Positions 5,679 through 50,408 of a stretch of 56,564 nt of DNA are shown here, piece after piece. The notes beneath the pieces are model-generated. The model did no database searches. It was not told the DNA's origin and saw only the letters and a program-made list of their open reading frames with translations. The position numbers and the translations under genes were made by a program. Source of the stretch: Methanobacteriota archaeon (GTDB lineage: Archaea; JAADCQ01; Methanopyri; Methanopyrales; Methanopyraceae). Numbering within the stretch: position 1 is the stretch's first letter; every line of letters starts with the position of its first letter. The stretch lies in NCBI GenBank assembly GCA_027064305.1, contig JAMOPY010000040.1, positions 1 to 56,564 of the forward strand, read 5' to 3'.

Positions 5679-6377
5679 TTACCCCTGGTACTCCGCCACG
5701 ATGCCCACGTGATCGCGCTCGTACGGCTCCAGGTCGATGACCTCCAGGATCTCGAAGCCCCGCTCCTCCAGCTTCCGCTCCTCCTCCCGGAACACTTCCT
5801 CCGGCTCCTTCGTCACGTCGATCGAACGGGCCTTGACCGCCACGATGATGACGCCGCCCGGCTTCAGGAACGCCTCCGCGTTGTCCGCCACGACCTCCGC
5901 CTGCTTCGGCTGCGCGATGTCCTGGTAGATCACGTCCACCTGCTCCACGATCTCCGCGTACTCGTGCGGCTTGGTCGCGTCGCCCAGGATCGGGACCATG
6001 TTCGGCCGCTTCTCGCACACCGGGATCAGCTCCTGCATCATTCGCGACGCGAACTCCACGCAGTACTCGATCCCCTCCTCCCTGATGATGTCCGACACGT
6101 GCGAGGGCGTCGTACCCGCCGCCGCGCCCAGGTAGAGGACCTTGCTCCCCTCCTCGAACGGGAAGTGCTCCATCCCGTTCATGATCATCGCGGCCAGCTT
6201 GCTCCGGTTGGGCTCCCACACTCGGTACTCCGTCCCGTCCTGCTTGACCAACCGCTCCCCGTACACCTGATGACCGGGCACCAGGTTCTCCGTCGCGGGC
6301 TTCCGCGTCCCGTCCTCGAAGATCGCCCAGTACACGCCCTCAAACTCCTCGTGCGGCTCGATCTCGATCTCCACCAT
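5679..6377 (-). CDS. flpA: Fibrillarin-like rRNA/tRNA 2'-O-methyltransferase
   Basis: VYGE, YRVWEPNRSKLAA, VLYLGAAAGTTPSHVSD, DIAQPKQ, KARSIDVT. Confidence 0.98.
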   Translation of the reverse strand: MVEIEIEPHEEFEGVYWAIFEDGTRKPATENLVPGHQVYGERLVKQDGTEYRVWEPNRSKLAAMIMNGMEHFPFEEGSKVLYLGAAAGTTPSHVSDIIREEGIEYCVEFASRMMQELIPVCEKRPNMVPILGDATKPHEYAEIVEQVDVIYQDIAQPKQAEVVADNAEAFLKPGGVIIVAVKARSIDVTKEPEEVFREEERKLEERGFEILEVIDLEPYERDHVGIVAEYQG

Positions 6378-6420: not shown

Positions 6421-7695
6421 TCAGCGCCGGCGGGAGCGACGCCTCCGATCCCGACGCGAGCGCCGGGGCGAGCGCCGCCGCCGACCCCCGCGACGACCAC
6501 CGCGACGACCGCGCGGCGGCCGACCGCGCCCGCGCCGCTTCGGCGGCCGCGGGTACTTCTCCTTGATCTCCTTCACCCGCTGCTCCAGCTGCCGCTTCAG
6601 CTCGTCGCCCCGGTACTCGCCCGAGTACGCGTCGATCCGCGCCGCGATCGCCAGCTTGCCCGCCAGCGCCCGCGCGATCTTACCCCGCTGCCACCACGGG
6701 CTCCGGTGAATGAGCGGGTGCTGGAAGATCACCCCGTGCTTCGGCGGCTTCGTGCCCTTCGTCAGGTGCCGGAACAGCGCCTTCTCCGCGCCCAGCAGCT
6801 GGATCGTGCTCGCCGGCAGCCGCGCCATCTCCTTCAGCCCGCCGGCCAGCGCGATCAGCCGCGCCCCGATCAGCGGGCCCACCAGCGCCTTGATGTTCGG
6901 GGCCACGTCGTCCATCGACTCGTCGATGTACTCCGCCGTCTTCCGCCGGATCTCGTACAGCTCCCGCGCGATCTCCGCCACCCGCTGCACGGCCCGCAGG
7001 TCCTTCTCGTCCATCTCCGCCCCCATCGAGTCCTTCGCCGCCTCCTCCAGCTTCTCCGCCAGGTGGTCCGGGAAGTCCGGCAGCACCTCCTTGATCCGCT
7101 CCTTCGTGAAGTTGTCCCGGTGCCCCAGCTCCGCCACCAACGTCACGAAGTCATCGTGTTTCTTCACGATCTTGTTGATCTCCGGGAAGTGGATCCCGTA
7201 CCACTCCCGCACCCGATCCGTCAGGATGTTCAGGATCCGGTCGATGTCGTCGATCGTGTTGATCGCCTGGATGATCATCTGGTCCCGCTCCTCGACCGTC
7301 TCCCGCACCTTCCGCTTCGACAGCTTGATCCCGACCTCGTACGCCAGCTCCGCGAACTCCTCCTCCGACCCGACCACGCCCGCCTCCACGGCCAGCTCCC
7401 GCGCCCGCTCCCGCAGGATCTCGCCCGCCACGTTCGGAAACTCCACGATCAGCTCGCCGTCCACCACCTCCTCCAGCCGCTGCCGGTCCGCCTTCGTCCC
7501 CTCGAAGTTGATCGTGTCCGCCTCCAACCGGGAGAGCAGCTTCTCCTCCTCCTCCAACACCTCTCCGCGCTCCTTCCGGATCAACCGCTCCACGATCTCG
7601 TCCGGGTCCGACGGGAACGGCTCGCTGTCGATCAGGTTCCCCTCCTCATCGAACGCGTACACGCCCGTGATGTTCTCGGCCACGTACACGCCCAA
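6421..7695 (-). CDS. nop5: C/D box RNP protein Nop5 (Nop56/58)
   Basis: REWYGIHFPE, PASTIQLLGAEKALF, PKHGVIF, RGKIARALAGK; Arg-rich tail. Confidence 0.98.
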   Translation of the reverse strand: MGVYVAENITGVYAFDEEGNLIDSEPFPSDPDEIVERLIRKERGEVLEEEEKLLSRLEADTINFEGTKADRQRLEEVVDGELIVEFPNVAGEILRERARELAVEAGVVGSEEEFAELAYEVGIKLSKRKVRETVEERDQMIIQAINTIDDIDRILNILTDRVREWYGIHFPEINKIVKKHDDFVTLVAELGHRDNFTKERIKEVLPDFPDHLAEKLEEAAKDSMGAEMDEKDLRAVQRVAEIARELYEIRRKTAEYIDESMDDVAPNIKALVGPLIGARLIALAGGLKEMARLPASTIQLLGAEKALFRHLTKGTKPPKHGVIFQHPLIHRSPWWQRGKIARALAGKLAIAARIDAYSGEYRGDELKRQLEQRVKEIKEKYPRPPKRRGRGRPPRGRRGGRRGGRRRRSPRRSRRDRRRRSRRR

Positions 7696-7823
7696 CGCGC
7701 CCGCACCCCCTCGATCATCGACCCCTCACCGCCGAGGGCCCGCGACACCTCAGAAAAACCCTCGTTTCCCATTCCCGCGCGGCGCGCGCCCACCCACGCT
7801 CCCGAGTTATTTGAACCCTTTTC

Positions 7824-8810
7824 TCACCCGCGCACCTCGAACCCCTCGTTCCGCGGCTCCGACACGATCACCTCGCCCCCCACCCCCCGCTCCCTCAGGA
7901 ACCGCTCCAACTCCCGCGCCACGCCGCCCGCCGACGCCGAGTCGCACACCGCGTACACCGTCGGACCGAACGAGCTCAACCCCGCCCCGTACGCGCCCGC
8001 CTCCCGCGCCACCTCCATCAACTCCCGCACCACCGCGTCCTGCAGCCCCACCTCCACCCGCTTGAACCCCAACCCCTGCACCTCATCCACCGCCCGACCG
8101 AACGCCTCCGCGTCACCCTCCGCCACCGCCGGCAGCATCACCATCAGCACCAACCGACACACCCGCTCCACCTCCCGCGCCGGCACCGGGCAGTACCGCC
8201 GGAAGATGTCCACCTCCTCCTCCCCGTGCGCCCCCCGCCGAACCTCCGGGATCGCCAGCACGAACCGCCAGTCCCCCGGCACCTCCAACCGCGCCACCAC
8301 CGGCGCCGGCGGCACCTCCCCCGACGCCGCCGACGGCTTGAACCCCTCCTTACCCCCCGGACCGAACCGGTGCCCCCCATCCACGATGAACCCACCACCC
8401 TCGAACGCCGCCACCCCGATCCCCGACGTCCCACCGCGACCCAGCAGGTCCGCCAGCCCCCGCACGTCGTAATCCTCCACCCCGAACGCCTCCAACACGC
8501 CCACCGCCACCGACAACGTCGCCTGCGTCCCCGAGCCCAACCCCACGTGCTCCGGGTACGACCGCCGCACCACCACCCGCACCCCGCCCTCCAGCCCGAA
8601 CCCCTCCAACACCGCCCGCGCCGCCCGCTCCGCCTTCACCGCCACCTCCCCCTCACCCTCCACCGTCACCCCCTCCTCCGCCCGCTCCACCTCGAACTCC
8701 ATCCACGGCCGCTCCAACGTCACCCCCACGCTCCCGTCCACCCGACCCAACCCACCGTGCAGGTCGATCAGCGTCACGTGCAGCCGCGAGACCGACCGCA
8801 CCACGACCAA
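7824..8810 (-). CDS. mptG: Beta-ribofuranosylaminobenzene 5'-phosphate synthase (GHMP family)
   Basis: SRLHVTLID, HVGLGSGTQ, GRGGTSGIG, GGFIVDGGH, SSFGPTVY; TTG 8810 follows an SD-like GGGGTG. Confidence 0.9.
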   Translation of the reverse strand: MVVVRSVSRLHVTLIDLHGGLGRVDGSVGVTLERPWMEFEVERAEEGVTVEGEGEVAVKAERAARAVLEGFGLEGGVRVVVRRSYPEHVGLGSGTQATLSVAVGVLEAFGVEDYDVRGLADLLGRGGTSGIGVAAFEGGGFIVDGGHRFGPGGKEGFKPSAASGEVPPAPVVARLEVPGDWRFVLAIPEVRRGAHGEEEVDIFRRYCPVPAREVERVCRLVLMVMLPAVAEGDAEAFGRAVDEVQGLGFKRVEVGLQDAVVRELMEVAREAGAYGAGLSSFGPTVYAVCDSASAGGVARELERFLRERGVGGEVIVSEPRNEGFEVRG

Positions 8811-8864
8811 GACCCGGGCACCCCTCACCCCCACCCAAGGGAAAGCGTAAAACCGCTGCGACCC

Positions 8865-8929
8865 GGTCGGGGGCCGTGGAGGCCGATCATCGGGAACCCC
8901 CTCACCCCCGGACTAGCTCCCCATCCCGG
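8865..8929 (-). ncRNA. Possible box C/D sRNA
   Basis: Degenerate C GGGATGG, D' GTGA, C' CCGATGA, D CCGA at sRNA spacing; one guide has only an 8-nt match to 16S (CGGACTAG, 12005-12012). Confidence 0.45.
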
Positions 8930-8940
8930 GGCCCACCCAC

Positions 8941-9492
8941 TTGCACGCGCTCGAGCGCGTCCTACGGCTCCTCCAGGACCTCGAATCCCACCTCGAGGGC
9001 GCCGCCGACCTCCCCGAGCCCGAGCCCATCGCCCGCTTCGCCCTCCAGCGCACCACCCCCCACGACCTCCGCCTCTGCACCGCCATCGTCGAGACCGAAC
9101 TCGAGCTCTGGGAGGACTCCGGCCTCCACGTCCGCCCCGCCCTCCACCCCTACGTCGCCGAACGCCTCGGCGCGTACACCCTCGACGACCGCCTCATCGG
9201 CCGCCTCCTCGACTACCCCGACTGCTGCATCGAACACTTCCTCCAGGGCCGCACCCACTACGACCACGACCCACCCACCACCGTCGTCCTCACCGAGGGC
9301 TTCGTCCCCTGCCGGGCCACCTGCGACCCCGCCCGCCGCGCCCACCTCCTCGAGACCACCGACGACCCCACCCCCTACCGCGAGCTCGAGCGCGAGCTCG
9401 AACAAGCCCTCCACCGCCTCGGCGCCCCCACCTACCACTCCGCCTACCAAGGCTTCTACGAGATCCACCGCCCGGGCGGGCCCCACCCATGA
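8941..9492 (+). CDS. DUF483-like archaeal protein
   Basis: RPALHPYV...GRLLDYPDCC...F and FVPC...C motifs; ATGA overlap with the next gene. Confidence 0.7.
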   Translation: MHALERVLRLLQDLESHLEGAADLPEPEPIARFALQRTTPHDLRLCTAIVETELELWEDSGLHVRPALHPYVAERLGAYTLDDRLIGRLLDYPDCCIEHFLQGRTHYDHDPPTTVVLTEGFVPCRATCDPARRAHLLETTDDPTPYRELERELEQALHRLGAPTYHSAYQGFYEIHRPGGPHP

Positions 9493-10322
9493 AACGCTTC
9501 AAAACCCACGTCCCCGGCCTCGACGACCTCATCGGCGGCGGACTCCCCCACCGCGGCGTCACCCTCCTCCTCGGACCCCCCGGCACCCCCCGCCAACTCC
9601 TCCTCGAGAACGTCCTCTGGAACGCCCTCGAACGCGACCACCGCGTCCTCCTCCTCACCACCGGCACCAGCCCCCACGAACTCCTCCGCCGCGCCGAGGA
9701 GTACGGCCACGACCTCCGCGAACCCCACCAACGCGGCGACCTCACCATCCTCAACGCCTTCAGCATCCGCGCCGGCGTCTACCACCGCACCCTCGGCGAG
9801 ATCGTCCAGGACCTCAACCCACACCGCCTCCGCGACCAACTCCTACAACACGACCACGACCTCCTCCTCATCGACCTCCTCCAACCCATCCACCGCGACG
9901 ACCCCGACCGCTACCTCCACACCCTCACCACCCTCAAGATCGTCGCCCTCGAACGCGACACCACCATCCTCGCCGGCTGCACCTCCGACCTCGCCCAACA
10001 CCACGCCGACCTCCCCGACACCCTCCTCCGCACCGACGCCCACGAACTCCACGGCGCCCTCACCTACAGCCTCCTCCCCCTCACCACCCAACCACCCCAC
10101 CTCCCCAAGTACCGCGCCCCCCTCACCCTCCTCGACGACGGCACCGTCCTCGTCCACCACGACAAGATCCTCGACCCCCACACCGGCGACATCCGCGACG
10201 CCGACGACCACATCGACCGCACCTTCCACGTCCCCCAAGACGTCGCCCGCGACGCCACCGAGGACTCCGACGTCCTCGAAGACCTCGACCAACTCCTCCG
10301 CGAACTCGACGAAGAGGGATGA
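9489..10322 (+). CDS. RecA-superfamily (KaiC/RAD55-like) ATPase with a degenerate Walker A
   Basis: MKRFKTHVPGLDDLIGGGLP...LLLGPPGTPRQ...LLLID; C-terminal part of the 8226..10322 ORF. Confidence 0.8.
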   Translation: MKRFKTHVPGLDDLIGGGLPHRGVTLLLGPPGTPRQLLLENVLWNALERDHRVLLLTTGTSPHELLRRAEEYGHDLREPHQRGDLTILNAFSIRAGVYHRTLGEIVQDLNPHRLRDQLLQHDHDLLLIDLLQPIHRDDPDRYLHTLTTLKIVALERDTTILAGCTSDLAQHHADLPDTLLRTDAHELHGALTYSLLPLTTQPPHLPKYRAPLTLLDDGTVLVHHDKILDPHTGDIRDADDHIDRTFHVPQDVARDATEDSDVLEDLDQLLRELDEEG

Positions 10323-10378
10323 CGACACGGCCACGGGAGGCGACCACACCGGGATGACCGCAACCCGCCCACCCGACC
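10314..10378 (+). ncRNA. Probable box C/D sRNA whose box C contains the ATPase stop codon
   Basis: C GGGATGA (10316-10322), D' GCGA, C' GGGATGA (10351-10357), D CCGA (10373-10376); target not in the window. Confidence 0.6.
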
Positions 10379-10415
10379 GCACCCATTAAACCCCGAAAGC
10401 CGGCACCATCCCCGG

Positions 10416-10496
10416 GGGCGGCCGGGATGACGCGGGGATTAGCCCCAGCTTGAGCCACCCGCGATGATAGGTCCCGAGGGTGCCGACCGGCCGCCC
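10416..10496 (+). ncRNA. Box C/D sRNA targeting the 5' domain of 16S
   Basis: 10-bp terminal stem; C GGGATGA, D' TTGA, C' GCGATGA, D CCGA; guides pair perfectly with 16S 11358-11372 (15 nt) and 11327-11337 (11 nt). Confidence 0.92.
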
Positions 10497-10507
10497 GACC
10501 GCGACAA

Positions 10508-10528
10508 TCGTTACGAAGAACGTAACGA
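10508..10528. repeat. 21-bp palindrome, copy 1 (TCGTTACG AAGAA CGTAACGA)
   Basis: Perfect 8-5-8 inverted repeat just after a C/D sRNA. Confidence 0.85.
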
Positions 10529-10531
10529 CAA

Positions 10532-10594
10532 CCGGGATGACGACTGCCCGCGAAGGGGAGGCCCACCCGATGACCTACCCACCCTTGACCGACC
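10532..10594 (+). ncRNA. Possible box C/D sRNA, antisense to the LAGLIDADG 3' end
   Basis: C GGGATGA (10534-10540), C' CCGATGA (10567-10573), D CCGA (10589-10592); D' is degenerate. Confidence 0.5.
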
Positions 10595-10963
10595 ACGCCT
10601 CCCGCACCCGCTCCAACCCCTCCCGCGACCCGTGCACGCCCGCCTCCAACAGCTCCAACACCCTCCCCAACCGCTCCAACGCGCCCCGCTTCACCACCAC
10701 CCTACCCACCATCAGATCCACGAACCGACGCAGGTCCTCCCGACGGTAGATCTCGAGGTACCACACGCCGTCGCGCCGACGGTACAGGTGCCCCATCCCG
10801 AGCGTCTCACGGATCTCCTCGAGCACCCCCCCCGCTCCTTCTGCACGAAGACCACCTTGGTGGAAACCCGGTAACCCGCCCGGTACCGCCCATCCCGCAC
10901 GAACCGGACCACCACCGACCCCTCACCGTCGAAGAAACCCGCCACGTAGTCCAGCGAGACCAA
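10575..10963 (-). pseudogene. Single-motif LAGLIDADG homing-endonuclease-like gene split by a frameshift in a G8 run
   Basis: MVSLDYVAGFFDGEGSV...FVQKERG continues in another frame as VLEEIRETLGMGHLY...; the break is at the C8 run 10826-10833 on the + strand. Confidence 0.85.
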
Positions 10964-11030
10964 GCGACCGCACCCCCACCGCCCGCGCGCCCACCCCCGA
11001 TAAACCCCGCGATCCCGCCCCGAACCGTAC

Positions 11031-11046
11031 CGAAATCTTCATATAG
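11031..11046 (+). promoter_or_regulatory. Probable 16S rRNA promoter (BRE/TATA)
   Basis: CGAAATC TTCATATA, an AT-rich patch about 165 nt upstream of mature 16S. Confidence 0.55.
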
Positions 11047-11141
11047 AACGACCTTACCGCCCCCGACGGACGCGAGGGAGAGCCCCCCGATGGGGCCCCG
11101 GGCAACCCCGGGGGGAACCACCCCCGGGGCCCCGGGGCCGA

Positions 11142-11179
11142 CGCAAGCCCGCCCCCCGGGGCCGTGACGGCCCCGCCGC
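11142..11179 (+). other. 5' arm of the 16S processing stem (relaxed bulge-helix-bulge)
   Basis: Pairs with 12740-12777 as 21-bp and 10-bp helices around CGTGACG/AACGACA. Confidence 0.85.
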
Positions 11180-11208
11180 GGACCCAAATCCTTGCGGCCG
11201 CCACCCTA

Positions 11209-12724
<1,516 letters not shown>

Positions 12725-12739
12725 AGCGGAGGGGATGAT

Positions 12740-12777
12740 GCGGCGGGGCAACGACAGCCCCGGGGGGCGGGCTTGCG
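12740..12777 (+). other. 3' arm of the 16S processing stem
   Basis: Reverse complement of 11142-11179 except for the BHB-like core. Confidence 0.85.
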
Positions 12778-12804
12778 CGGGGGGCGATGACCTCCTTCCG
12801 AGAA

Positions 12805-12825
12805 TCGTTACGAGTTCCTTAACGA
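12805..12825. repeat. 21-bp palindrome, copy 2 (TCGTTACG AGTTC CTTAACGA)
   Basis: One mismatch to consensus; just past the 16S processing stem. Confidence 0.85.
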
Positions 12826-12828
12826 ATC

Positions 12829-12891
12829 GGGCGTGATGAATCACTCCCCTGCTGAGGGCGCCGCTGATGACTTTTCCTCCGACTGAGCGCC
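12829..12891 (+). ncRNA. Box C/D sRNA with canonical boxes, probably targeting 23S
   Basis: C GTGATGA (12833-12839), D' CTGA, C' CTGATGA, D CTGA (12883-12886); targets AGGGGAGTGA and GGAGGAAAAG resemble conserved 23S domain I sequences (recalled). Confidence 0.9.
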
Positions 12892-12952
12892 GGGATGATC
12901 GCAGTCCCGCAGGCGTACCGCGCCGGATGACGAGCCCTTTTAGGGGTGACCG
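12891..12952 (+). ncRNA. Box C/D sRNA targeting 16S
   Basis: C GGGATGA (12892-12898), C' CGGATGA, D GTGA (12946-12949); guides pair with 16S 11826-11835 and 11751-11761 (one G-U). Confidence 0.75.
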
Positions 12953-12963
12953 CCCCGGGCCAA

Positions 12964-12984
12964 TCGTTACGGATTTCATAACGT
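12964..12984. repeat. 21-bp palindrome, copy 3 (TCGTTACG GATTT CATAACGT)
   Basis: Directly after the last sRNA of the 16S trailer. Confidence 0.8.
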
Positions 12985-13044
12985 TGGATCGCCGGGTTAA
13001 TGGGCGGGGGTGCCGGGCCCGGGTCGGGGCGTCCGGCCTTGTCC

Positions 13045-13488
13045 ATGGTGGACGTGACGGGGAAGCGGGAGCAGGTGCGCATCGCGGAGGCTCGCGGGTT
13101 CCTGAGGCTGTCGGAGGAGGGTGTGGAGGCGCTGAGGAGGCGGGAGTCGCACCCGGAGGGGAAGGGTGACCCGATCGAGGCGGCGAGGTTGGCGGCGATG
13201 CTGGCGGTCAAGCGGACGCCGGAGCTGGTTCCGCACTGTCATCCGGTGCGGATTACGGGGGTCGACGTGGACGTGGAGGTGAAGGAGGATGGAGCGGAGA
13301 TGACGGTGCGGGTGAAGTCGGTGGGTCGGACGGGGGTGGAGATGGACGCGCTCACGGGGTTGGTGGTGGGGTTGGTCACGCTCTGGGACATGGTGAAGTA
13401 CGCGGAGAAGGATGAGGAGGGGCGGTACCCGCACACGAGGATCGAGGACGTGCGGGTGGTGAGGAAGGTCAAGAGGGACGTCGGGTGA
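13045..13488 (+). CDS. moaC: Cyclic pyranopterin monophosphate synthase
   Basis: MVDVTGK, KGD, AVKRTPELVPHCHP, TGVEMDAL, WDMVK. Confidence 0.95.
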   Translation: MVDVTGKREQVRIAEARGFLRLSEEGVEALRRRESHPEGKGDPIEAARLAAMLAVKRTPELVPHCHPVRITGVDVDVEVKEDGAEMTVRVKSVGRTGVEMDALTGLVVGLVTLWDMVKYAEKDEEGRYPHTRIEDVRVVRKVKRDVG

Positions 13489-13513
13489 GTGGTTTTTCCG
13501 CCCGCCTCGTCGC

Positions 13514-14035
13514 CTAGGCCTTGCCTTGGGCGTGGGCGACGGCGTGGGGTAGTAGTTCGAGGAGGAGTTCGGCGCCGAGTTCGGCGGCGTGGGGGGAGCC
13601 GGGGAGGCAGGCGACGGGGGTTTGGTTCACGACGTACATCTCGGCGCGGGTGAGGGCGGCGTGGGCGCCGATCTCCTTCTCGGAGTGGCGGCGGAAGAGC
13701 TCGCCGAAGCCGGGGAGGCGTTTGTCGGCGATGCGTTCGAGGGCTTCGATGGTGGTGTCGGTGGGGGTGATGCCGGTGCCGCCGGTGGTGATGATGGCGT
13801 GGGCGCGTTCGGTGAGCCATTTGACGGCGCCGGTGATCATGTCGGGCTGGTCGGGGGTGAGGAGTCGGTAGCGGACCTCGTGGCCGGCTTCTTCGAGCTT
13901 TCGTTGGAGGGTGTCGCCGGAGGGGTCGTCGGGGTCGTCGCCGCGGGCGGCCTGTTCGAACTTGCTGGTGCTGATGGTGATGATGGCGAGGTGGAGGGTC
14001 TCGGGGGCGTGTTGTAGGTGTTCGTGGAGGGTCAG
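13514..14035 (-). CDS. moaB: Molybdenum cofactor biosynthesis protein MoaB/MogA; apparent CTG start
   Basis: IITISTS, DPSG, TTGGTGITPTD.T.EA, LPGFGELFR, LPGSPHA; no ATG/GTG/TTG near the 5' end. Confidence 0.9.
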   Translation of the reverse strand: MTLHEHLQHAPETLHLAIITISTSKFEQAARGDDPDDPSGDTLQRKLEEAGHEVRYRLLTPDQPDMITGAVKWLTERAHAIITTGGTGITPTDTTIEALERIADKRLPGFGELFRRHSEKEIGAHAALTRAEMYVVNQTPVACLPGSPHAAELGAELLLELLPHAVAHAQGKA

Positions 14036-14061
14036 GGTGGGGTCCCCCGTTGGTCTCGGGG

Positions 14062-15333
14062 TTAGCGTGTTCGTAGGAGGCGTTTGGCGAGGGGTTGGGC
14101 CCAGGTGGCTTCGAGGATGACGCTGAGGAGGATGGTGAGGAAGGTGGCGACGAGGATGGTGCCGGCGAGGGCGTGTGGGGGCATTTGTCGGGTGATGTGG
14201 GGTGGGAGTAGGTGGGGGTGGGTGGTGATCTTGGTGTAGACGGTGCCGACGAGGGCGGCGGGGACGACGCCGCGGGGGCCTTCGAGGGCCAGGTAGAGGC
14301 GCTCTTTCAGGGTGAGGGGTTCCTTGGGGGGCAGGTAGGTGCCGGCGAGGACGCCGAGGGGTCGGGCGAGGAAGATGTTGCCGAGGGCGCAGAGGAGTCC
14401 GCCGAGCCAGTATCGTTTCAGGAGTGGGAGGCTGACGCAGGCGCCGAGGGTGGTGAAGACGATGATGCGGACGACGGTGGAGAGTTCCTCCATGAAGCCT
14501 TTGAGGAATTGGAGGTCCTCTCGGAGGTGCTCGTGTTCGGTGAGTCGGTTGCCGATGTACATGCCCAGGATGGCCACGGCCATGAATCCGCTCAGTTCGT
14601 ACCCGGTGAGGTGGGGTATGGTTTCCTCGCAGAGGTACCAGGTGGCGAGGGCGGCGCCGAGGGTGATGGGGACGACGTACTCCTTGAAGGGTTCTCGGGC
14701 GAGGAGTTGTTCGAGTGCGGCGCCCGCGATCGCGCCGGCGGCGGCGCCGCCGGCGGCGAGGGAGAGGAAGAGGGCGATGGGGTTGTGGTGGGCTCCGATG
14801 CCGATGGTGGAGAGGGAGGTCTTGGTGAGTACGACGCCGAGTGGGTCGTTGAACACGCTCTCGGCGATGAGGGTGGTGGAGATCTCGGCGGGTAGGTCGA
14901 GCTTGGTGAAGACGGGGATGAGGGTGGCGGGGTCGGTGGCGCACGTGATGGCCCCGTAGAGGAAGCCGATGGGGCTGAGGGGGTTCACGTGGAAGGCGAG
15001 GTTGAAGATGAGGGAGGAGAGGGCGGCCGTGATGAGGAGGGTGATGAGGTCGAGCTTGGCGACGAGGGTGGCGACGCGGCGGAGGACGTCGATGCTGATC
15101 TCGAAGCCGCCGTCGAGGAGGATGATGATGAGTCCGACGGTGCCTAGGAAGGGGAAGATTTGCTGGGCGTGTTCGGGTCGGATGATGCCGGTGAGGGGAC
15201 CGAGGAGGAATCCGAGGAGGAGTAGGAAGGGGATGTCGGGGAGTCGGGCTTCCTCGGAGAGTCGGGCGACGATGGCGCCGAGGGTGAGTAGTAGGGCGGT
15301 GTAGCCGAGGAGGGTGAAGAACCCGAACTTCGT
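14062..15333 (-). CDS. nhaP: CPA1/NhaP-type Na+/H+ antiporter; apparent ACG start
   Basis: ATDPATLIP, ESVFNDP, GPRGVVPA; the frame stays open 115 codons upstream of the called GTG and includes LPDIPFLLLLGFLLGP and GLIIILLDGGF. Confidence 0.9.
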   Translation of the reverse strand, partial: TKFGFFTLLGYTALLLTLGAIVARLSEEARLPDIPFLLLLGFLLGPLTGIIRPEHAQQIFPFLGTVGLIIILLDGGFEISIDVLRRVATLVAKLDLITLLITAALSSLIFNLAFHVNPLSPIGFLYGAITCATDPATLIPVFTKLDLPAEISTTLIAESVFNDPLGVVLTKTSLSTIGIGAHHNPIALFLSLAAGGAAAGAIAGAALEQLLAREPFKEYVVPITLGAALATWYLCEETIPHLTGYELSGFMAVAILGMYIGNRLTEHEHLREDLQFLKGFMEELSTVVRIIVFTTLGACVSLPLLKRYWLGGLLCALGNIFLARPLGVLAGTYLPPKEPLTLKERLYLALEGPRGVVPAALVGTVYTKITTHPHLLPPHITRQMPPHALAGTILVATFLTILLSVILEATWAQPLAKRLLRTR

Positions 15334-15352
15334 CGGTGCTCCCCCCGCCGTT

Positions 15353-15916
15353 TTAGGCCTTGGTGCACAGTTTGGCGAAGTTCTTCAGGATGTCGGGGCC
15401 GTACTCGGTGTATTTGAGCTCGGGATGGAACTGGACGCCGTAGAGTGGGAGTTCACGGTGGCGCATGGCCTCGACCTCGCACTTGTCGGAGCGGGCGGTG
15501 ACGAGGAACTCGTCCGGGACCTCCTTGACCTCGTCGCGGTGTGAGGTCCAGGCGGTGATGCGGTCGGGGAGTCCCTCGAAGATGCCCTCGTGGTCGAGGA
15601 TTTCGATCTCGGTGCGGGCGTAGTCTTCGCGGCCGGCGGCCCAGTCGACCCGGCCGCCGAAGACCTCGGCCATGAGCTGATGGCCGAGGCAGATGCCGAG
15701 GATGGGGAGCTCGCCGGCGAGTTCTTCGATGATCTGGGGGGAGTTGCCGGCGCGGTCGCGGGAGGGGCCGCCGCTGATGATGACGCCGTCGGCGCGGCGG
15801 CGGATGTCGTCGGGGTCGGTGGTGTTGGGGACGATCTCGGCGGGGATGTTGAGGTAGTCGTAGTTCTTGCGGATGAGGTGGACGTACTGGCCGTGGTTGT
15901 CGACGATGAGGATCAA
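15353..15916 (-). CDS. guaAA: GMP synthase glutamine amidotransferase subunit
   Basis: VDNHGQY, ISGGP, PILGICLGHQL, SHRDEV, GVQFHPE. Confidence 0.95.
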   Translation of the reverse strand: MILIVDNHGQYVHLIRKNYDYLNIPAEIVPNTTDPDDIRRRADGVIISGGPSRDRAGNSPQIIEELAGELPILGICLGHQLMAEVFGGRVDWAAGREDYARTEIEILDHEGIFEGLPDRITAWTSHRDEVKEVPDEFLVTARSDKCEVEAMRHRELPLYGVQFHPELKYTEYGPDILKNFAKLCTKA

Positions 15917-15931
15917 GCGGGGGTGGGTCCC

Positions 15932-17158
15932 CTAGGCGAGTTCGACGTCGGAGCCGGCCATCTTGACGCCGGTGATGCGGGCGACGTCCTCGGAGAGGGC
16001 GCGGAGGTCCTCCTTCTCGAGGTTGTGCACGTCGGTCTTGCCGGCGAGTTGGGCGAGCATCTTACACTCCTCGGTGATGACCTTGAGGTAGTTGGCGACG
16101 CGTTCGGCGGCCTCGTCGACGTCGAGGTTCTTGCGGAGTTCGGGGTCCTGGGTGCAGATGCCCTTGGGGCACTTGCCGGTGTGGCACTGCATGCAGGCGG
16201 TGCAGCCCATGGCGATGAGGACGCCGGTGCAGACGTACACGGCGTCGGCGCCGAGGGCGAGGGCCTTGGCCACGTCGGCCCCGTCGCGGATGCCGCCGGA
16301 GATGATGATATCGACCTCGTCGCGGAGTCCGAGCTCGTTGAGGGCCTCGACGGCCTGGACGAGGGCTGCGATGGTGGGGATGCCGGCGTTCTCGGTGGCG
16401 ATCTCGGGGGAGGCGCCGGTCCCGCCCTGCATGCCGTCGATCGCGATGATGTCGGCGCCGGCCTTGGCCGCGATCTTGACGTCCTCCTTGACGCGGCCGG
16501 GGCTGTACTTGACGATGATCGGGACCTTCCAGTCGGTGATCTCGCGGAGCTGCTCGATTTTCATCTTGAGGTCCTCAGGCCCGACGATGTCCATGTGCCG
16601 GGCCGGGGAGAGCGCGTCGGTGCCCTCGGGGATGCCGCGGATCTCCGCGATCTCCTTGGTCACCTTTTCGCCCATGAGGTGGCCGCCCATGCCGGGCTTG
16701 GCGCCCTGTCCGATCTTGATCTCGATCGCGTCCGCGGCGTTGAGGTACTCGGCGGACACGCCGAAGCGGCCGGACGCGTACTGGGCGATGAGCCACTCGG
16801 CCTCCTCGCGCTCCTCGGGGAGCATGCCGCCCTCGCCGGTGTTGGTCGCGGTCCCGACCTTGGCGGTGCCTCGGGCGACCGCGATCTTGGCCTCCCGGCT
16901 CAGGGCGCCGAAGGACATCGCGCCGACGAGGACGGGCGTGTCCAGCTTGAGGGGCCGCTCGGCGAACCGGTCCCCGAGCACGGTCTTGGTCCGGCACGGC
17001 TCCCGGTACTTGTCGATGGGCGGGCGGGAGACCTGGGCGGGTACGATGACCAGGTCGTCGAAGTGCGGGACCTTGCGGCTCGTGCCGAACCCTCGGACCA
17101 CGTACTGCCCGGTCTCGGCCTTCTGCTGGATCTCCTTCACGTGGTCACGCCACCACAC
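15932..17158 (-). CDS. Archaeal glutamate synthase FMN-binding subunit
   Basis: AMSFGALS, NTGEGG, QYASGRFGV, EIKIGQGAKPGMGGHL, GCTACMQCHTGKCPKGICTQ. Confidence 0.95.
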   Translation of the reverse strand: MWWRDHVKEIQQKAETGQYVVRGFGTSRKVPHFDDLVIVPAQVSRPPIDKYREPCRTKTVLGDRFAERPLKLDTPVLVGAMSFGALSREAKIAVARGTAKVGTATNTGEGGMLPEEREEAEWLIAQYASGRFGVSAEYLNAADAIEIKIGQGAKPGMGGHLMGEKVTKEIAEIRGIPEGTDALSPARHMDIVGPEDLKMKIEQLREITDWKVPIIVKYSPGRVKEDVKIAAKAGADIIAIDGMQGGTGASPEIATENAGIPTIAALVQAVEALNELGLRDEVDIIISGGIRDGADVAKALALGADAVYVCTGVLIAMGCTACMQCHTGKCPKGICTQDPELRKNLDVDEAAERVANYLKVITEECKMLAQLAGKTDVHNLEKEDLRALSEDVARITGVKMAGSDVELA

Positions 17159-17311: not shown

Positions 17312-17388
17312 GGCCCCGCAGTCTAGCCTGGATAGGACGCGGGCCTGCGGAGCCCGTAGCCCGGGTTCAAATCCCGGCGGGGCCACCA
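17312..17388 (+). tRNA. tRNA-Arg(GCG) with genomic C8 and encoded CCA
   Basis: GGCCCCG/CGGGGCC acceptor stem, anticodon GCG 17347-17349, TTCAAAT T-loop, C at position 8 (17319); TATA TTTTTTAA at 17273-17280. Confidence 0.97.
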
Positions 17389-18739: not shown

Positions 18740-18870
18740 GGACGGCGGCGGCATCCCGGGCTTCCCGCGCCCTCTCGGAGCGCAGTACCACCCGGGACGC
18801 GGCCGGGCTTAACTTCCGGGTTCGAGATGTGGCCCGGGTGTGGCCCCGGCCGCTGTGGCCGCCGCCGTCC
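18740..18870 (-). rRNA. rrf: 5S rRNA (stand-alone)
   Basis: Minus strand reads GGCGGCCACAGCGG...CACACCCGG...TCGAACCCGGAAGTTAAGCCC...GGTACTGCG..CCGAGAGG; 13-bp terminal stem; TATAAGTA upstream at about 18890-18897. Confidence 0.95.
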
Positions 18871-45190: not shown

Positions 45191-46258
45191 CTGATCTGCC
45201 ACCGGTGCGGGCGCGAGGCGACCACGCTCATCGAGGGGCTGTGCCCCGAGTGCTTCCTCGAGGAGCACCCGATGATCCGGGTGCCGGAGGACCTGGAGGT
45301 GCGGGTCTGCGCCCAGTGCCTCAGCCGTCACACCGGGCTCCGCTGGGAGCACCCGCCCGGGGACGCGGAGGACGTCGAGTCCCTGCTCATCGAGTACGCC
45401 CTCCGCGCCCTGGAGGACGAGATGCGGGTCCTTCAGGGGGCCCGGGTGGACGTCCGGCCCCTGGAGGTCAAGGGCGAGCCGGGCGGCCCCGGCTCCCGCG
45501 TGCAGGTCGCGTTCCTGGTCGAGGGCGAGTGGGAGGTGGAGGGGGAGCGACTCCGCCGGGAGTATCACCTTAAGGTCCCGGTCACGTTCACCCTCTGCCA
45601 CCGGTGCATGAAGTACCGGTCCGGGTTCTACGAGGCCATCCTGCAGGTGCGCTCCTTCCGCGGCGGGCTCACGGAGTCCGAGCGGAAGGAGCTGGAGGAG
45701 TTCGTGACGCGGTCCGCGGAGTCCCTGCTCAAGCGCGACCCGATGGCCTTCATCTCGGACGTGAAGCACCGGGACGAGGGCATCGACTTCTACCTCGGCT
45801 CGACCAGCGCCGCCCGGAAGCTGGCCCGACGCCTCGTCGACCGGTTCGGCGGGACCGTGCGGGAGTCCCACGAGCTGGTCGGCGTCGACAAGGACACGGG
45901 CAAGCGGCGCTACCGCACGTCCATCTCCGTGCGGCTCCCACACCTCCGGCCCGGGGACGTGATCGAGCTCGAGGGCGCCCCGTACGAGGTCACGGGCGTG
46001 GGCGAGCGCTGCACCCTCCGCCGCCTGACGGACGGGACCCGGGTCCGCCGGGACTGGGAGGAGCTCGCGGAGGCCCGGCGCCTCAAGCCCGAGCCTGCCA
46101 TCGTCGTGAACACCGACCCGCCCCAGGTCGTGCTGGAGCGCACGGGCGAGACCCTCGACTGCTTCGACACCGGGGCCCTCGACGGGTTAGAAATAGGGCG
46201 GCGGGTGACGGTCGTCGTCCTGGACGAGGGCGCCGTGGTCCTACCCGAGGAGGACTGA
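45191..46258 (+). CDS. nmd3: Nmd3-family ribosome biogenesis protein; apparent CTG start
   Basis: CHRC...GLCPEC upstream of the first ATG, CAQC, CHRC, YEAILQVR, GIDFYLGS, LVGVD. Confidence 0.9.
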   Translation: MICHRCGREATTLIEGLCPECFLEEHPMIRVPEDLEVRVCAQCLSRHTGLRWEHPPGDAEDVESLLIEYALRALEDEMRVLQGARVDVRPLEVKGEPGGPGSRVQVAFLVEGEWEVEGERLRREYHLKVPVTFTLCHRCMKYRSGFYEAILQVRSFRGGLTESERKELEEFVTRSAESLLKRDPMAFISDVKHRDEGIDFYLGSTSAARKLARRLVDRFGGTVRESHELVGVDKDTGKRRYRTSISVRLPHLRPGDVIELEGAPYEVTGVGERCTLRRLTDGTRVRRDWEELAEARRLKPEPAIVVNTDPPQVVLERTGETLDCFDTGALDGLEIGRRVTVVVLDEGAVVLPEED

Positions 46259-46271
46259 CGGGGGGCGCGCC

Positions 46272-47243
46272 ATGGCGGAGGACGCCTGGGAGCTCGTCAC
46301 GCGCAACGCCGTCGAGATCGTCACGGAGGAGGAGCTCCGCCGGATACTCGAGGAGAAGGACGAGCCCGTCGCCTACGTCGGGTTCGAGCCCTCGGGCGAC
46401 ATCCACCTCGGGCACAAGCTCGTGATCGACAAGATGGTGGACCTCCAGCGGGCCGGGTTTCGGGTGATCATCCTGCTCGCCGACCTGCACGCGTACCTGA
46501 ACGAGAAGGGCTCCCTCGAGGAGGTGCGGGAGCTGGCCGAGTACAACAAGCGCTGCTTCACGGCCCTCGGCCTCGACCCCAAGCGCACGGAGTTCGTCCT
46601 CGGCTCCGAGTTCCAGCTCGAGGAGGACTACGCCCTCGACGTGTACCGCATGGCCCGCCACACGACCATGCGCCGCGCCCGCCGGAGCATGGACATGATC
46701 GCCCGCCGCGAGGAGAACCCACCCGTCTCCCAGGCCGTCTACCCGCTCATGCAGGCGCTCGACATCGTGCACCTCAACGTGGACCTCGCCGTGGGCGGCC
46801 TCGAGCAGCGGAAGATCCACATGCTCGCCCGGGACGTCCTGCCCAAGCTCGGCTACGACGCCCCCACCTGCCTGCACACCCCCATCATCCACGGGCTCGA
46901 CGGCGAGGAGAAGATGTCCTCGAGCAAGGGGAACTACATCGCCGTGAACGACGACCCCGAGACCATCCGCGAGAAGCTCCGGCGGGCCTACTGCCCGGCG
47001 GGCGAGGCCGAGGGCAACCCCGTCCTCGAGATCTACCGGTACTTCATCTTCCGCGAGTACGACGAGGTCACGATCGAGCGCCCCGAGAAGTACGGCGGGG
47101 ACGTGACCTACACCAGCTACGAGGAGCTCGAGCGCGACTTCGTCAACGAGGACCTCCACCCGCTCGACCTCAAGGAGAACGCCGCCCGGTACCTCGCCGA
47201 GATCCTCGAACCCGTGCGCAAGGCCGTGGGCACCCCCTCCTGA
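46272..47243 (+). CDS. tyrS: Tyrosine--tRNA ligase
   Basis: [39 protein letters not shown]. Confidence 0.98.
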
Positions 47244-47258
47244 CGGGGGCCCACCCCC

Positions 47259-47841: not shown

Positions 47842-47862
47842 CCCCGACCGGGAGGCGCCCCG

Positions 47863-49301: not shown

Positions 49302-49314
49302 CCGGGGCGCCACC

Positions 49315-50352: not shown

Positions 50353-50367
50353 CCGCGCCCCTGGGAA

Positions 50368-50388
50368 ACGTTGCAACGACCGTAACGA
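50368..50388. repeat. 21-bp palindrome, copy 8 (ACGTTGCA ACGAC CGTAACGA)
   Basis: Between convergent top6A and the secreted-protein gene; right arm is perfect. Confidence 0.65.
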
Positions 50389-50408
50389 TAGGCCCGGGGT
50401 GAGGGGGC

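Follow-up and report, generated by a model that had tools for sequence, protein, structure and literature searches.

In mammalian genomes, 'N-domains' are marked by skew jumps at replication initiation zones. Like the locus described here, they combine a sharp upward jump with outward decay at many sites and no consensus; unlike it, they extend over hundreds of kilobases with an amplitude of a few per cent, are partly transcription-coupled and occur where the eukaryotic ORC is present. The skew of vertebrate mitochondrial DNA is attributed to deamination of a lastingly single-stranded strand and is graded by exposure time. It reaches similarly extreme values at silent sites (~0.7-0.9), but it belongs to one asymmetric replicon, whereas two mirror-image arms lie here within a chromosome. 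At CpG-island promoters and immunoglobulin switch regions, GC skew goes together with R-loops and changes sign at bidirectional promoters. These regions share with the present locus kilobases of a G-rich non-template strand near strong promoters; their skew follows gene transcription, whereas six of the ten genes here are transcribed against it. In Escherichia coli, the highly transcribed rrn operons are candidate sites of stable DNA replication. One account of RNase HI-deficient cells describes this replication as constitutive and as starting from R-loops (PMC4631800).

The window, the whole stretch of 56,564 nucleotides analysed here, lies on contig C40 of a 50-contig genome (G000) from an uncultured, very GC-rich relative of Methanopyrus, a heat-loving methanogen. 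[quoted passage not shown] The differences are that its amplitude is several-fold higher (third-position GC skew, GC3 skew, up to 0.9), that its reach is only ~4-5 kb per side rather than a whole replichore, and that several copies occur per genome, with no initiator gene, ORB repeats or DUE found.

A symmetric skew switch is centred on the 16S rRNA gene

On the + strand, the GC skew is -0.40 in the left arm (7000-11100) and +0.33 in the right arm (12950-16500). The AT skew has the contrary sign in each arm (+0.18 and -0.14, respectively). Between 7001 and 11000, the GC skew of 1-kb windows lies between -0.35 and -0.45 and A exceeds T; between 13001 and 16000, it lies between +0.31 and +0.41 and T exceeds A. 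An earlier note on this DNA had counted 36 C and 6 G at 10081-10140 and 36 G and 6 C at 14161-14220, and these counts are exact. The polarity is of the bidirectional-origin type, as that note had stated, with T in excess of A on the G-rich side. The switch is organized as a bubble of two arms around the 16S gene. The skew forms a plateau of ~3 kb, is down to half its value, on either side, at a distance of ~4.6-4.9 kb from the gene's midpoint and is equally strong upstream and downstream. Background is reached within ~5 kb, with a slight negative sign on both outer flanks. The 16S gene itself has a GC skew of +0.11, which is the ordinary G excess of an rRNA and no more; it is 99% identical to the 16S genes of G001 and G002 and is unlinked to the 23S gene. 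The features are as follows, with GC3 skew given for the coding strand and the value of the G002 orthologue in parentheses.

5679-6377, -: Fibrillarin gene (Pfam Fibrillarin, 7.8e-104), at the outer edge of the left arm
6421-7695, -: Nop5 gene (Pfam Nop, 1.7e-74); coding strand G-rich, +0.38 (+0.25)
6900-11100, no strand: left arm; + strand C- and A-rich, plateau ~7.8-11.1 kb, faded by ~6 kb
7824-8834, -: GHMP-kinase gene (Pfam GHMP_kinases_C/N); coding strand G-rich, +0.65 (+0.29)
8941-9492, +: unnamed gene, called from ORF and codon score, orthologous to a 190-aa G002 gene; coding strand C-rich, -0.71 (-0.18)
9489-10322, +: KaiC-like ATPase gene (Pfam ATPase (KaiC), 3.2e-16); coding strand extremely C-rich, -0.89 (-0.36)
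10575-10963, -: LAGLIDADG endonuclease gene, two ORFs with the motif, immediately upstream of the 16S promoter region
11209-12725, +: 16S rRNA gene (Rfam SSU_rRNA_archaea, 1464.9 bits), the bubble centre
12829-12888, +: C/D-box sRNA-like element in the 16S trailer
12950-16700, no strand: right arm; + strand G- and T-rich, plateau 13.0-15.9 kb, faded by ~17 kb
13045-13488, +: MoaC gene (Pfam MoaC, 6e-40); coding strand G-rich, +0.63 (+0.06)
13514-14050, -: MogA/MoaB-like gene with a molybdopterin-binding domain (Pfam MoCF_biosynth, 5.4e-30, in the C-terminal part of ORF 13514-14944; start approximate); coding strand C-rich, -0.75 (-0.02)
14062-14988, -: Na+/H+ exchanger gene (Pfam Na_H_Exchanger, 4.8e-35); coding strand C-rich, -0.74 (-0.06)
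15353-15916, -: glutamine amidotransferase gene (Pfam GATase, 3.6e-49); coding strand C-rich, -0.64 (-0.11)
15932-17158, -: Glutamate-synthase-domain gene (Pfam Glu_synthase, 3.5e-135), at the outer edge of the right arm; -0.36 (+0.04)
18743-18866, -: 5S gene
46000-55000, no strand: weak change of the same sign at ~52-53 kb, at a divergent pair of an unnamed gene (-) and CobN (+)

Read on the + strand, gene-wise GC3 skew runs through -0.38, -0.65, -0.71, -0.89 and -0.45 up to the 16S gene, and through +0.63, +0.75, +0.74, +0.64 and +0.36 to ~0 beyond it. Its sign follows the arm across genes of both strands and not gene direction; the coding strand is G-rich in only four of the ten bubble genes and C-rich in six. 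Independence of gene direction, which the earlier note had proposed, is borne out by this constancy, and the silent sites carry the strongest skew, with third positions reaching -0.89 and +0.75. The accompanying shift in protein composition is likewise real: in the KaiC-like ATPase, the 'His/Pro/Thr-rich ATPase' of that note, H+P+T+Q+L amounts to 0.46, compared with 0.26 in the G002 orthologue.

The substitution spectrum is strand-specific and mirrored between the arms

In comparison with G002, + strand changes in the left arm are dominated by G>C (41/95/56 versus 8/7/9 per kb for C>G) and those in the right arm by C>G (79/80/74 versus 10/8/3 per kb for G>C). When read on the G-rich strand, the ratios in the two arms are 263:24 and 234:37 for C>G:G>C, 94:16 and 91:20 for C>T:G>A, and 186:69 and 192:62 for A>G:T>C; the arms mirror each other in every substitution class. 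Over ~4-5 kb per side, the strand pointing outward when read 5'-to-3' (+ on the right, - on the left) has become poorer in C and richer in G and T. Such a signature is the one that would be expected for loss of cytosine and adenine on one strand. The same signature, in weaker form, is found in the long one-signed contigs of G000 (ratios in the 84-kb C23: 1.7 for C>G, 2.0 for C>T, 1.5 for A>G), which points to a replication-type skew process that may be intensified locally at the bubble. Divergence from G002 is not raised (0.23-0.28 in the arms, 0.22-0.26 in controls), and G000-G003 identity in the arms is within the range of the remaining sequence. Because the differences stem from saturated silent sites (76% mean identity), a deamination reading of this spectrum is not secure. 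The GC3 skew across genes of both orientations, set against that of the G002 orthologues, marks the bias as mutational and as coming from neither gene orientation nor selection.

The bias is old, lineage-specific and shared with the 23S gene

G001 and G002 are complete genomes of the same genus with a GC content of 0.58-0.61. The flanks of their 16S genes are fully syntenic with the window, and despite this neither genome has such a switch; the G002 orthologues of the bubble genes have GC3 skews of only -0.36 to +0.29. The closer, high-GC relatives G003 and G005 share the 16S switch, and the loci that carry the pattern are the same in G000, G003 and G005; outside the high-GC clade, the effect is not strong. 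When G003, G002 and G001 serve as references, the bias is seen to have arisen on the branch that G000 and G003 share. On the G000 branch it continues, with counts of 31:7 for C>G and 21:7 for C>T in the right arm and of 28:8 for G>C and 24:5 for G>A in the left; on the G003 branch it is reverting. Old and still active, the feature is a mutational footprint specific to this lineage.

An extension of the switch to the other rRNA loci, raised in the earlier note, holds for 23S and fails for 5S, which has no bubble. In G005 (95% identical), the unlinked 23S gene lies in a minus-then-plus bubble, where GC3 skews range from -0.3 to -0.7 on its upstream side and are +0.4/+0.9 downstream; the 23S bubble of G004 is weaker. 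In G002, the change at 23S from -0.16 to +0.11 corresponds to the ~99th to 99.5th percentile of the switch values of that genome (99th percentile, 0.24; 99.5th, 0.28), and the change at 16S to the ~95th percentile. A faint version of the bubble is present at both G002 rRNA genes, and the link to rDNA is strengthened by these observations.

Further centres lie away from rRNA genes

Across G000, |skew| exceeds 0.3 in 99 of 2,344 1-kb windows, 12 of which make up the two 16S arms, and none of 1,035 4-kb windows is more negative than the left arm (C40:7001, -0.40). In a scan with 3-kb arms, only C15:19200 (0.65) and C40:11300 (0.63) reach 0.6, the next value being 0.41. Inside contigs, two switches of at least 0.6 run from minus to plus and only two run in the opposite direction, both of the latter at block edges; full-strength switches occur in outward polarity only. 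The 16S gene is not the single centre that it had been taken for. At ~19.0 kb of C15, a bubble as strong as that at 16S surrounds a 240-bp gap between convergent gene ends, where the genes for a PIN protein and a TPP enzyme have C-rich coding strands. A third bubble straddles the C10/C50 contig junction, and another is centred at ~24 kb of C29 in G003. At least these three centres lack an rRNA gene, and a search for a sequence element common to the rRNA and non-rRNA centres found none. No bubble accompanies the 5S and tRNA genes of the window. The second switch suspected near 52-53 kb is present as a weak change, from a phase-based GC3 skew of about -0.3 (46-51 kb) to +0.2/+0.3 (53-55 kb), and stays below the 0.6 threshold of the scan.

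Genome-wide, the locally G-rich strand is the coding strand for only 345 of 740 genes. Among the 24 genes with the most G-rich coding strands, the 22 that were scanned have ordinary biosynthetic functions; none of them belongs to the ribosome or to methanogenesis. No replichore-scale switch was found at the centres in G000 or in a 230-kb stretch of G003. A chromosome-level origin is therefore not indicated. The statement of the earlier note that no cdc6/orc1 gene, ORB repeats or AT-rich element is visible was confirmed by search on all three counts: G000 has no Pfam Cdc6_C match, and neither ORB-like repeats nor an AT-rich element was found. Passages of two papers likewise give Cdc6/Orc1 as missing in Methanopyrales (PMC3914693, PMC2643942), and firm identification of the origins of Methanopyrus strains is reported not to have been possible (PMC5504354).

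Short-range outward opening or synthesis of DNA is a tentative explanation

The bubble is neither a coding or selection feature nor the main origin of the chromosome. The favoured reading, with a probability of only about one in three, is that the rRNA genes, together with a small number of other loci, may be short-range zones of outward, bidirectional opening or synthesis of DNA. At heavily transcribed rRNA genes and the few other loci, R-loops or recombination intermediates would prime such events, the genus being without Orc1/Cdc6. On each side, the displaced (lagging-template) strand would remain single-stranded longest near the centre, and its cytosines would deaminate at ~100 C. Together with the strong G+C pressure of the clade, this deamination would drive third positions to G on the displaced strand. 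Tracts would seldom exceed ~5 kb and would thus leave no replichore-scale switch; conversely, the lack of such a switch at the centres makes a short range an ad hoc requirement. The proposed mechanism resembles E. coli stable DNA replication, that is, origin-independent initiation at persistent R-loops, with a displaced strand of the mitochondrial kind. In E. coli such replication is the phenotype of a mutant, whereas RNase HII is present here, as in all five genomes tested; its presence leaves persistent R-loops without an obvious cause. In favour of the proposal are the mirrored substitution spectrum, the recurrence at 23S, the outward polarity of all full-strength switches and the missing initiator. 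Counting against it are the unraised divergence of the arms, the centres that have neither an rRNA gene nor an element in common with the rRNA centres, and the restriction of a strong effect to high-GC genomes.

Outward transcription alone is a less probable reading, though one to be taken seriously. Read-through downstream from the very strong rRNA promoter and divergent transcription upstream from the same region would expose the non-template strand for several kilobases, leading to transcription-associated mutation and R-loops with no DNA synthesis. Enrichment of the non-template strand in G and T is established for transcription-associated asymmetry, and the observed polarity suits it; both rRNA genes are at centres. 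A TATA-like word upstream of 16S lies ~60-90 bp from the start of the leftward LAGLIDADG gene, which makes a shared bidirectional 16S promoter conceivable. At 70% GC, few T-tract terminators would be expected. M. kandleri is described, in a passage of PMC2643942, as having no transcript-cleavage factor TFS. Against this stand the C-rich coding strands of six of the ten 16S-bubble genes, where antisense would have to swamp sense transcription. The coding strands of the PIN and TPP enzyme genes at C15 are C-rich as well, as are probably those of the three + strand genes upstream of 23S (skew from G005; strand from G002 gene calls, with synteny of G005 assumed). The equal strength of the upstream and downstream arms, the convergent gene ends at the 240-bp C15 centre and the lack of a bubble at 5S or tRNA genes also speak against it, as do the 345 of 740 count and the ordinary biosynthetic nature of the 22 genes scanned among the 24 with the most G-rich coding strands.

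Double-strand breaks that recur at the centres, with the neighbouring LAGLIDADG endonuclease as one candidate agent and with kilobase resection and repair synthesis, are rather unlikely as the source of the bias, though likewise a rival to be taken seriously. The new strand would be laid down with G/T-biased errors or be displaced and single-stranded, as in break-induced replication; a resynthesized strand turning G+T-rich would suit the polarity. Homing leaves co-conversion tracts whose length and decay are similar to those seen here. The LAGLIDADG gene adjoins the 16S gene, and the centres coincide with variable gene content. Exactly at the centre of the C15 site, G002 has a PD-(D/E)XK nuclease-like gene (Mrr_cat, 2.3e-6) in a 0.9-kb stretch with no blastn alignment to G000. 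End resection, the alternative offered in the earlier note, is not supported if taken literally, since resection of the canonical 5'-to-3' type, in which the remaining 3' overhang takes the damage, should give the opposite polarity. Furthermore, arm divergence is not raised. The LAGLIDADG gene has one copy only and does not occur at the other centres; in G002, which has no 16S bubble, it is intact. At the 23S and C10/C50 centres, the search turned up no nuclease.

Stalling of inbound forks at rRNA genes or other barriers, with nascent leading strands degraded over a few kilobases and the template exposed, is very unlikely. The rRNA genes are classic fork barriers and both are among the centres, but ordinary inbound forks should produce the opposite polarity, so that special degradation of the leading nascent strand would be needed on both sides. 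Head-on and co-directional encounters should also differ, whereas the arms are equal, and the non-rRNA centres have no obvious barrier.

A classical chromosomal origin at the 16S gene is disfavoured to the point of being scarcely credible. Its GC and AT skew polarity is origin-like and the genus has no known origin (PMC5504354; a passage of PMC3914693), but the skew is at background within ~5 kb, with a slight negative sign on both outer sides, no orc1/cdc6, ORB-like repeats or AT-rich element was found, at least two further bubbles are equal to it, and G001 and G002 lack the 16S switch despite full synteny. Selection for strand-specific G-richness near the centres, such as favouring or avoidance of G-quadruplexes or R-loops or a polar motif, would fit the unraised divergence and the long retention of the pattern by G000, G003 and G005 at identical loci, but is highly improbable given the distorted amino-acid composition of conserved enzymes, the reversion on the G003 branch, the same signature at a low level genome-wide and a search that found no motif.

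Additional features of the 16S flanks

The C/D-box sRNA-like element in the 16S trailer resembles Rfam sR9/sR7 at 22-24 bits (E 0.05-0.08), below the Rfam gathering score, with C and D box words visible in the sequence. The LAGLIDADG gene spans two frames in the window (tblastn with the G002 copy as query, 78-88% identity), and the G002 copy matches Pfam LAGLIDADG_1 at 9e-11. Two letters at 10826 are missing from the contigs of all four public runs, and without them the gene would be in one frame. Finally, the Na+/H+ exchanger ORF has 308 aa, compared with 428 aa for the G002 orthologue, and its Pfam match covers profile positions 106-374 only.

A strand-skew inversion centred on the 16S rRNA gene

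In the studied genome (G000; 1.21 Mb in 50 contigs, 70% G+C, assembly 89% complete), the plus strand of the contig described here (C40; 56,564 b, all of which forms the window) turns from C-rich to G-rich at the 16S rRNA gene. The genes around this point, with the protein-coding genes identified by Pfam, are as follows.

Left of the 16S gene, minus strand: fibrillarin
Left of the 16S gene, minus strand: Nop5
Left of the 16S gene, minus strand: GHMP kinase
Left of the 16S gene, plus strand: KaiC-like ATPase
11209-12725, plus strand: 16S rRNA gene, not linked to the 23S gene
Right of the 16S gene, plus strand: MoaC
Right of the 16S gene, minus strand: MogA-like gene
Right of the 16S gene, minus strand: Na+/H+ exchanger
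Right of the 16S gene, minus strand: glutamine amidotransferase (GATase)
Right of the 16S gene, minus strand: glutamate-synthase-domain gene
17312-17388, plus strand: tRNA-Arg gene
18743-18866, minus strand: 5S gene

In 1-kb windows, the plus-strand GC skew lies between −0.35 and −0.45 over 7-11 kb and between +0.31 and +0.41 over 13-16 kb, and the AT skew is opposite in sign in both arms (arm means: GC skew −0.40 and AT skew +0.18 on the left, GC skew +0.33 and AT skew −0.14 on the right). As in replication-type asymmetry, an excess of T accompanies that of G on the same strand, and the skew is reversed in sign at one point. Such a minus-then-plus pair of arms is referred to as a bubble. The C and G counts that an earlier note had reported for 60-base windows are exact on recount, and the extreme C-to-G inversion that it described is confirmed at the scale of the genome: the two arms supply 12 of the 99 1-kb windows (among 2,344) with an absolute skew above 0.3, and the left arm is the most negative among 1,035 4-kb windows. 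A genome scan with 3-kb arms found switches of at least 0.6 only at C40:11300 and, on another contig, at C15:19200. Scanning by GC3 skew (third-codon-position G versus C skew) also returned only two full-strength switches within contigs, both minus-then-plus; the two switches of opposite sign are both block edges.

Gene by gene, the plus-strand GC3 skew is −0.38, −0.65, −0.71, −0.89 and −0.45 up to the 16S gene and +0.63, +0.75, +0.74, +0.64 and +0.36 beyond it, and then approximately 0. Its sign is set by the side of the 16S gene and not by gene strand, just as had been claimed from the sequence; the coding strand is G-rich in only 4 of the 10 bubble genes, and the other 6 run against the skew. 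Codon position 3 is shifted most, with positions 1 and 2 shifted in the same way, so that the composition of the KaiC-like protein is altered: His, Pro, Thr, Gln and Leu make up 46% of its residues versus 26% in the orthologue. Both the fading of the skew over several kb and the unusual ATPase composition are thereby borne out, and the latter illustrates how far a local mutation bias can push a conserved enzyme. As a practical warning, codon-usage-based gene callers choose the wrong strand within such zones; here, the C-rich-coding genes of the arms were assigned to the wrong strand, and the arm genes were instead defined by Pfam matches together with orthologues called in G002, a complete genome of the same genus. 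The Na+/H+ exchanger ORF (within 14062-15350, minus strand) encodes 308 aa that match only Pfam profile positions 106-374, and the G002 orthologue has 428 aa. The 5′ third of this gene may be frameshifted, or too diverged to recognise, in the C-rich coding strand.

Age and substitution pattern of the arms

The nearest relatives found in a search are five genomes of the same genus (G001-G005), all others returned being related at domain level only. G002 (1,694,969 b, 61% GC) was used whole, and its alignment with the studied genome spans 1.05 Mb, over which identity averages 76%. The 16S flanks are in full synteny with G001 and G002, with amino-acid identities of 91% for Nop5, 90% for fibrillarin, 79% for GHMP kinase, 77% for MoaC, 72% for the Na/H exchanger, 86% for GATase and 94% for GluS. 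No comparable switch is present at the syntenic 16S gene of G001 or G002, where orthologue GC3 skew ranges from −0.36 to +0.29 and the faint switch of G002 falls at about the 95th percentile of switch values. The 16S bubble is lineage-specific. It is shared by the closer relatives at 68-70% GC, namely G003 (~88% identical; arms of about −0.4 and +0.2 in raw skew and ±0.4 at GC3) and G005 (95% identical). Branch polarisation with G003, G002 and G001 as references shows that the bias first appeared on the branch shared by G000 and G003, continuing on the G000 branch and reverting on the G003 branch. The same arms occur, with ~0.5-1% differences (19/3,604 and 36/4,444 letters), in assembled contigs of public runs from two separate studies and are thus not an assembly artefact; this comparison covered the contigs of 4 of 20 listed runs, one of which may be the source sample. 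Unitig word depth, which is not a copy number, is ~760-900 in the arms versus ~875-990 outside them in one run (X1), and shows no rise over the arms in the four runs.

Relative to G002, every class of difference is polarised within the arms, with the left arm mirroring the right. Per kb of plus strand, the left arm has 41/95/56 G>C versus 8/7/9 C>G changes and is also enriched in T>C, A>C and G>A, and the right arm has 79/80/74 C>G versus 10/8/3 G>C changes and is also enriched in A>G, T>G and C>T. Because silent sites are saturated between the two genomes, these spectra reflect less the raw spectrum of mutation than an equilibrium that has shifted. In the one-signed contigs C23, C36 and C46, the substitution classes and their ranks are as in the arms, at 1.2-2 fold versus 3-11 fold. 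As for replication-type skew, the arms carry the same substitution signature as the long-range skew, which suggests the same process as that behind the replication-type skew of the genome, locally intensified.

The GC3 skew of these three contigs is contig-long, about ±0.2, independent of orientation and gained, G002 being without it. The clade of the studied genome is at 70% GC versus 58-61% in G001 and G002, and the standard deviation of gene GC3 skew is 0.22 in G000 versus 0.12 in G002. Among the genes considered as a cause of the strong form being confined to the high-GC clade, none differs across G000-G004 (EndoV 5/5, RNase HII 5/5, Pfam UDG 0/5); the UDG superfamily, found in none of these five genomes, has Pfam matches in 13 of 14 control genomes.

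Further centres and the link to rRNA genes

The 16S gene is not the only centre. The C15 bubble equals it in strength and is centred at 19,022, where the cumulative G−C minimum and the keto-amino minimum coincide; its GC3 skew runs −0.34, −0.67, −0.52, −0.54, −0.67 and then +0.67, +0.59, +0.59, +0.53, +0.53, +0.40. The centre is a 240-bp gap between convergent genes with no Rfam RNA gene at gathering score, and the bubble is common to G003 and G005 and absent from G001 and G004. The two halves of a third bubble lie on separate contigs, the minus half at the end of C10 (−0.3 to −0.5) and the plus half at the start of C50 (+0.5); in G002 coordinates these contig ends adjoin. One more bubble occurs in G003 (C29, ~24 kb), and several one-sided skew blocks lie at rearranged or contig-end positions.

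Since the 23S gene is absent from the 89% complete G000 assembly, its switch was examined in the relatives. In G005, the unlinked 23S gene lies in a bubble: GC3 skew is −0.3 to −0.7 over the ~9 kb before the gene and +0.4/+0.9 after it, where 2.6 kb of sequence is available. A weaker version of the same switch is seen in G004, and G002 has a faint one (−0.16 to +0.11), between the 99th (0.24) and 99.5th (0.28) percentiles of switch values. No bubble is seen at the window's 5S or tRNA genes. Of the two loci proposed for comparison with the 16S locus, the 23S locus shows the switch in the relatives and the 5S locus lacks it. A link between the skew switch and rDNA is supported, as the 23S and 16S genes are unlinked and both lie at centres, which is unlikely to be coincidence. 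The 75-kb stretch of G002 that holds the 23S gene (530-605 kb) has no counterpart in the G000 assembly.

At the non-rRNA centres, no RNA gene reaches the Rfam gathering scores, and only sub-threshold C/D-box matches are seen. A k-mer comparison found no element shared across centres except a generic RNA-gene trailer word, and BLAST among the G002 centre regions returned 16S/23S promoter similarity only. The word AATCGTTACGA, present at the 16S flanks and at the C15 centre, was rejected as a centre-specific element because its 24 genome-wide matches follow tRNA and rRNA genes, which marks it as this generic trailer; an inverted copy often comes after it, and it is found behind the 16S gene and behind about a dozen tRNA genes. 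Words of the C-box and D-box type (RUGAUGA, CUGA) are arrayed on either side of the 16S gene (10400-10600 and 12730-12990) and at the C15 centre (L001 9215-9267), the corresponding Rfam C/D sRNA matches being below threshold. DUF1678, a genus-specific family, has only two copies in G000 (C10:17130-17690, plus strand; C31:36026-36589, minus strand). Both adjoin strongly C-skewed blocks, two copies being too few to interpret, and a G002 copy lies at the position matching the further G003 bubble.

Polarity and candidate mechanisms

On each side of a centre, the strand running 5′-to-3′ away from it has lost C and gained G and T. Three situations leave this depleted strand exposed: at outward forks it is the template for the lagging strand, in outward strand-displacement synthesis it is the strand displaced, and in outward transcription it is the non-template strand. 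In vertebrate mitochondrial DNA, silent-site skew of this range is attributed to long single-strandedness during strand-displacement replication, and the silent-site amplitude here (0.7-0.9) is within the range of that system. The outward-strand loss of C, the weak signature shared with long contigs and the mitochondria-like amplitude together favour short-range, outward, bidirectional DNA opening or synthesis at the centres. Such events would be anchored on R-loops at rRNA genes and on a few other, possibly recombination-prone, loci, and their displaced strands would undergo heat-driven deamination. The probability of this reading is put at roughly 0.35. It is best to class the feature with strand asymmetry of the replication or R-loop type, as a new and extreme variant of short range.

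Outward transcription alone, starting from the rRNA promoter region and exposing the non-template strand, is considered unlikely. Sense transcription is opposed by the 6 of 10 bubble genes that run against the skew, the non-template strand being the G+T-rich one in the other 4 only. Genome-wide, the coding strand is locally G-rich in only 345 of 740 genes (local absolute GC3 skew of at least 0.05), and the most skewed genes elsewhere encode ordinary enzymes. Outward antisense transcription from the rRNA promoter region is conceivable; a LAGLIDADG endonuclease gene reads away from a TATA-like word that lies ahead of the 16S gene. As to a link with high transcription, centres coincide with the 16S and 23S genes and not with the 5S and tRNA genes, and the C15 centre has no known RNA gene.

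The same LAGLIDADG gene places an endonuclease at the 16S centre (the G002 copy matches Pfam at 9e-11), and a PD-(D/E)XK-like gene occupies the C15 site of G002; both are consistent with break repair at the centres. This explanation is nevertheless improbable. Simple end resection, the alternative raised in the earlier note, would give the wrong polarity, and divergence is not raised in the arms; the LAGLIDADG gene is single-copy and thus absent from the other centres. It is free-standing (10575-10963, minus strand), with the KaiC-like gene on one side and the promoter region of the 16S gene on the other, and is split over two frames in the window. The contigs of all four examined runs are without 2 letters at 10826, which would bring it into one frame, and the single-copy G002 gene is intact (135 aa). 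The PD-(D/E)XK nuclease-like gene (L106:565-1341, minus strand, equal to G002 1,220,565-1,221,341; UPF0102 2.1e-8, Mrr_cat 2.3e-6) occupies the exact position of the 240-bp C15 centre of G000, in a stretch of G002 with no blastn alignment to G000. Stalling of inbound forks at rRNA genes and other barriers is very improbable, as it gives the wrong polarity unless extra assumptions are added.

Comparison with a chromosomal replication origin

The succession of C-rich and G-rich arms with opposite AT skew supports the origin-like polarity noted earlier. As also noted, the usual landmarks are missing. No Orc1/Cdc6 was found among the Pfam-scanned ORFs of the window between 3.9 and 17.4 kb, and Pfam Cdc6_C has 0 matches in the 89% complete G000 assembly. 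Methanopyrales are described as lacking Cdc6/Orc1 in passages of two papers (PMC3914693, PMC2643942), and a passage of a third reports that the origins of Methanopyrus strains eluded firm identification (PMC5504354). For ORB/mini-ORB-like repeats, a general repeat search, as opposed to one with the ORB consensus, found only two-copy, low-identity repeats in four centre regions. No AT-rich unwinding element was seen, the A+T content of the top 40-nt windows being 52-57% next to the 16S gene, 55% for the C15 centre and 67% for that of C10.

The genome-wide skew likewise has no replichore-scale sign change at the 16S gene, GC3 skew being approximately 0 to slightly negative on both outer sides. 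In a difference map against G002, the 16S bubble lies inside one long domain, and domains alternate in G002 coordinates. The C15-type bubble of G003 (its contig C15, 200-430 kb) is an isolated spike in 230 kb, and C23 has a replichore-like, orientation-independent skew of about −0.2 over 84 kb. The cumulative skew of G002 forms no clean V shape, and gene orientation offers no bias by which to calibrate fork direction (coding strand locally G-rich in 46-49% of genes). None of the features of a canonical Orc1/Cdc6-dependent oriC (gene, ORB, AT-rich element, replichore switch) is present, and a unique or classical chromosomal origin at the 16S gene is not supported and is highly improbable.

We know of no Orc1/Cdc6 initiator or origin in Methanopyrus and Methanococcales, and several other archaea can copy their genomes without origins, in a way that is still under debate. 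The footprint described here assigns short, outward, strand-asymmetric events to the 16S and 23S genes and to a few other loci, which gives the origin question concrete coordinates and makes the bubbles valuable as a guide to the places where an archaeon that lacks an initiator may open its DNA. Tentatively, and with more doubt than confidence, the bubbles might be the replication-initiation zones of an Orc1/Cdc6-less archaeon with no dedicated origin. Replication would then begin from R-loops at both unlinked rRNA genes and from a few recombination-prone loci, and long-lived displaced strands would have inscribed these sites in the genome as a local strand asymmetry stronger than any other known from a prokaryotic chromosome. 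If true, sites of origin-independent initiation would have been mapped for the first time in Archaea, and from sequence alone. A narrow literature search, over the portions of the sources that it returned, gave no description of such local bubbles, which is not proof that none is in print.

The long-range skew of G000 has a sign change with origin polarity near 232-234 kb in G002 coordinates. Within the window, the gene for topoisomerase VI subunit A (49315-50352, plus strand) lies in a mildly C-skewed stretch just left of a weak switch at 52-53 kb, and its coding-strand GC3 skew is −0.43 versus −0.06 in G002.
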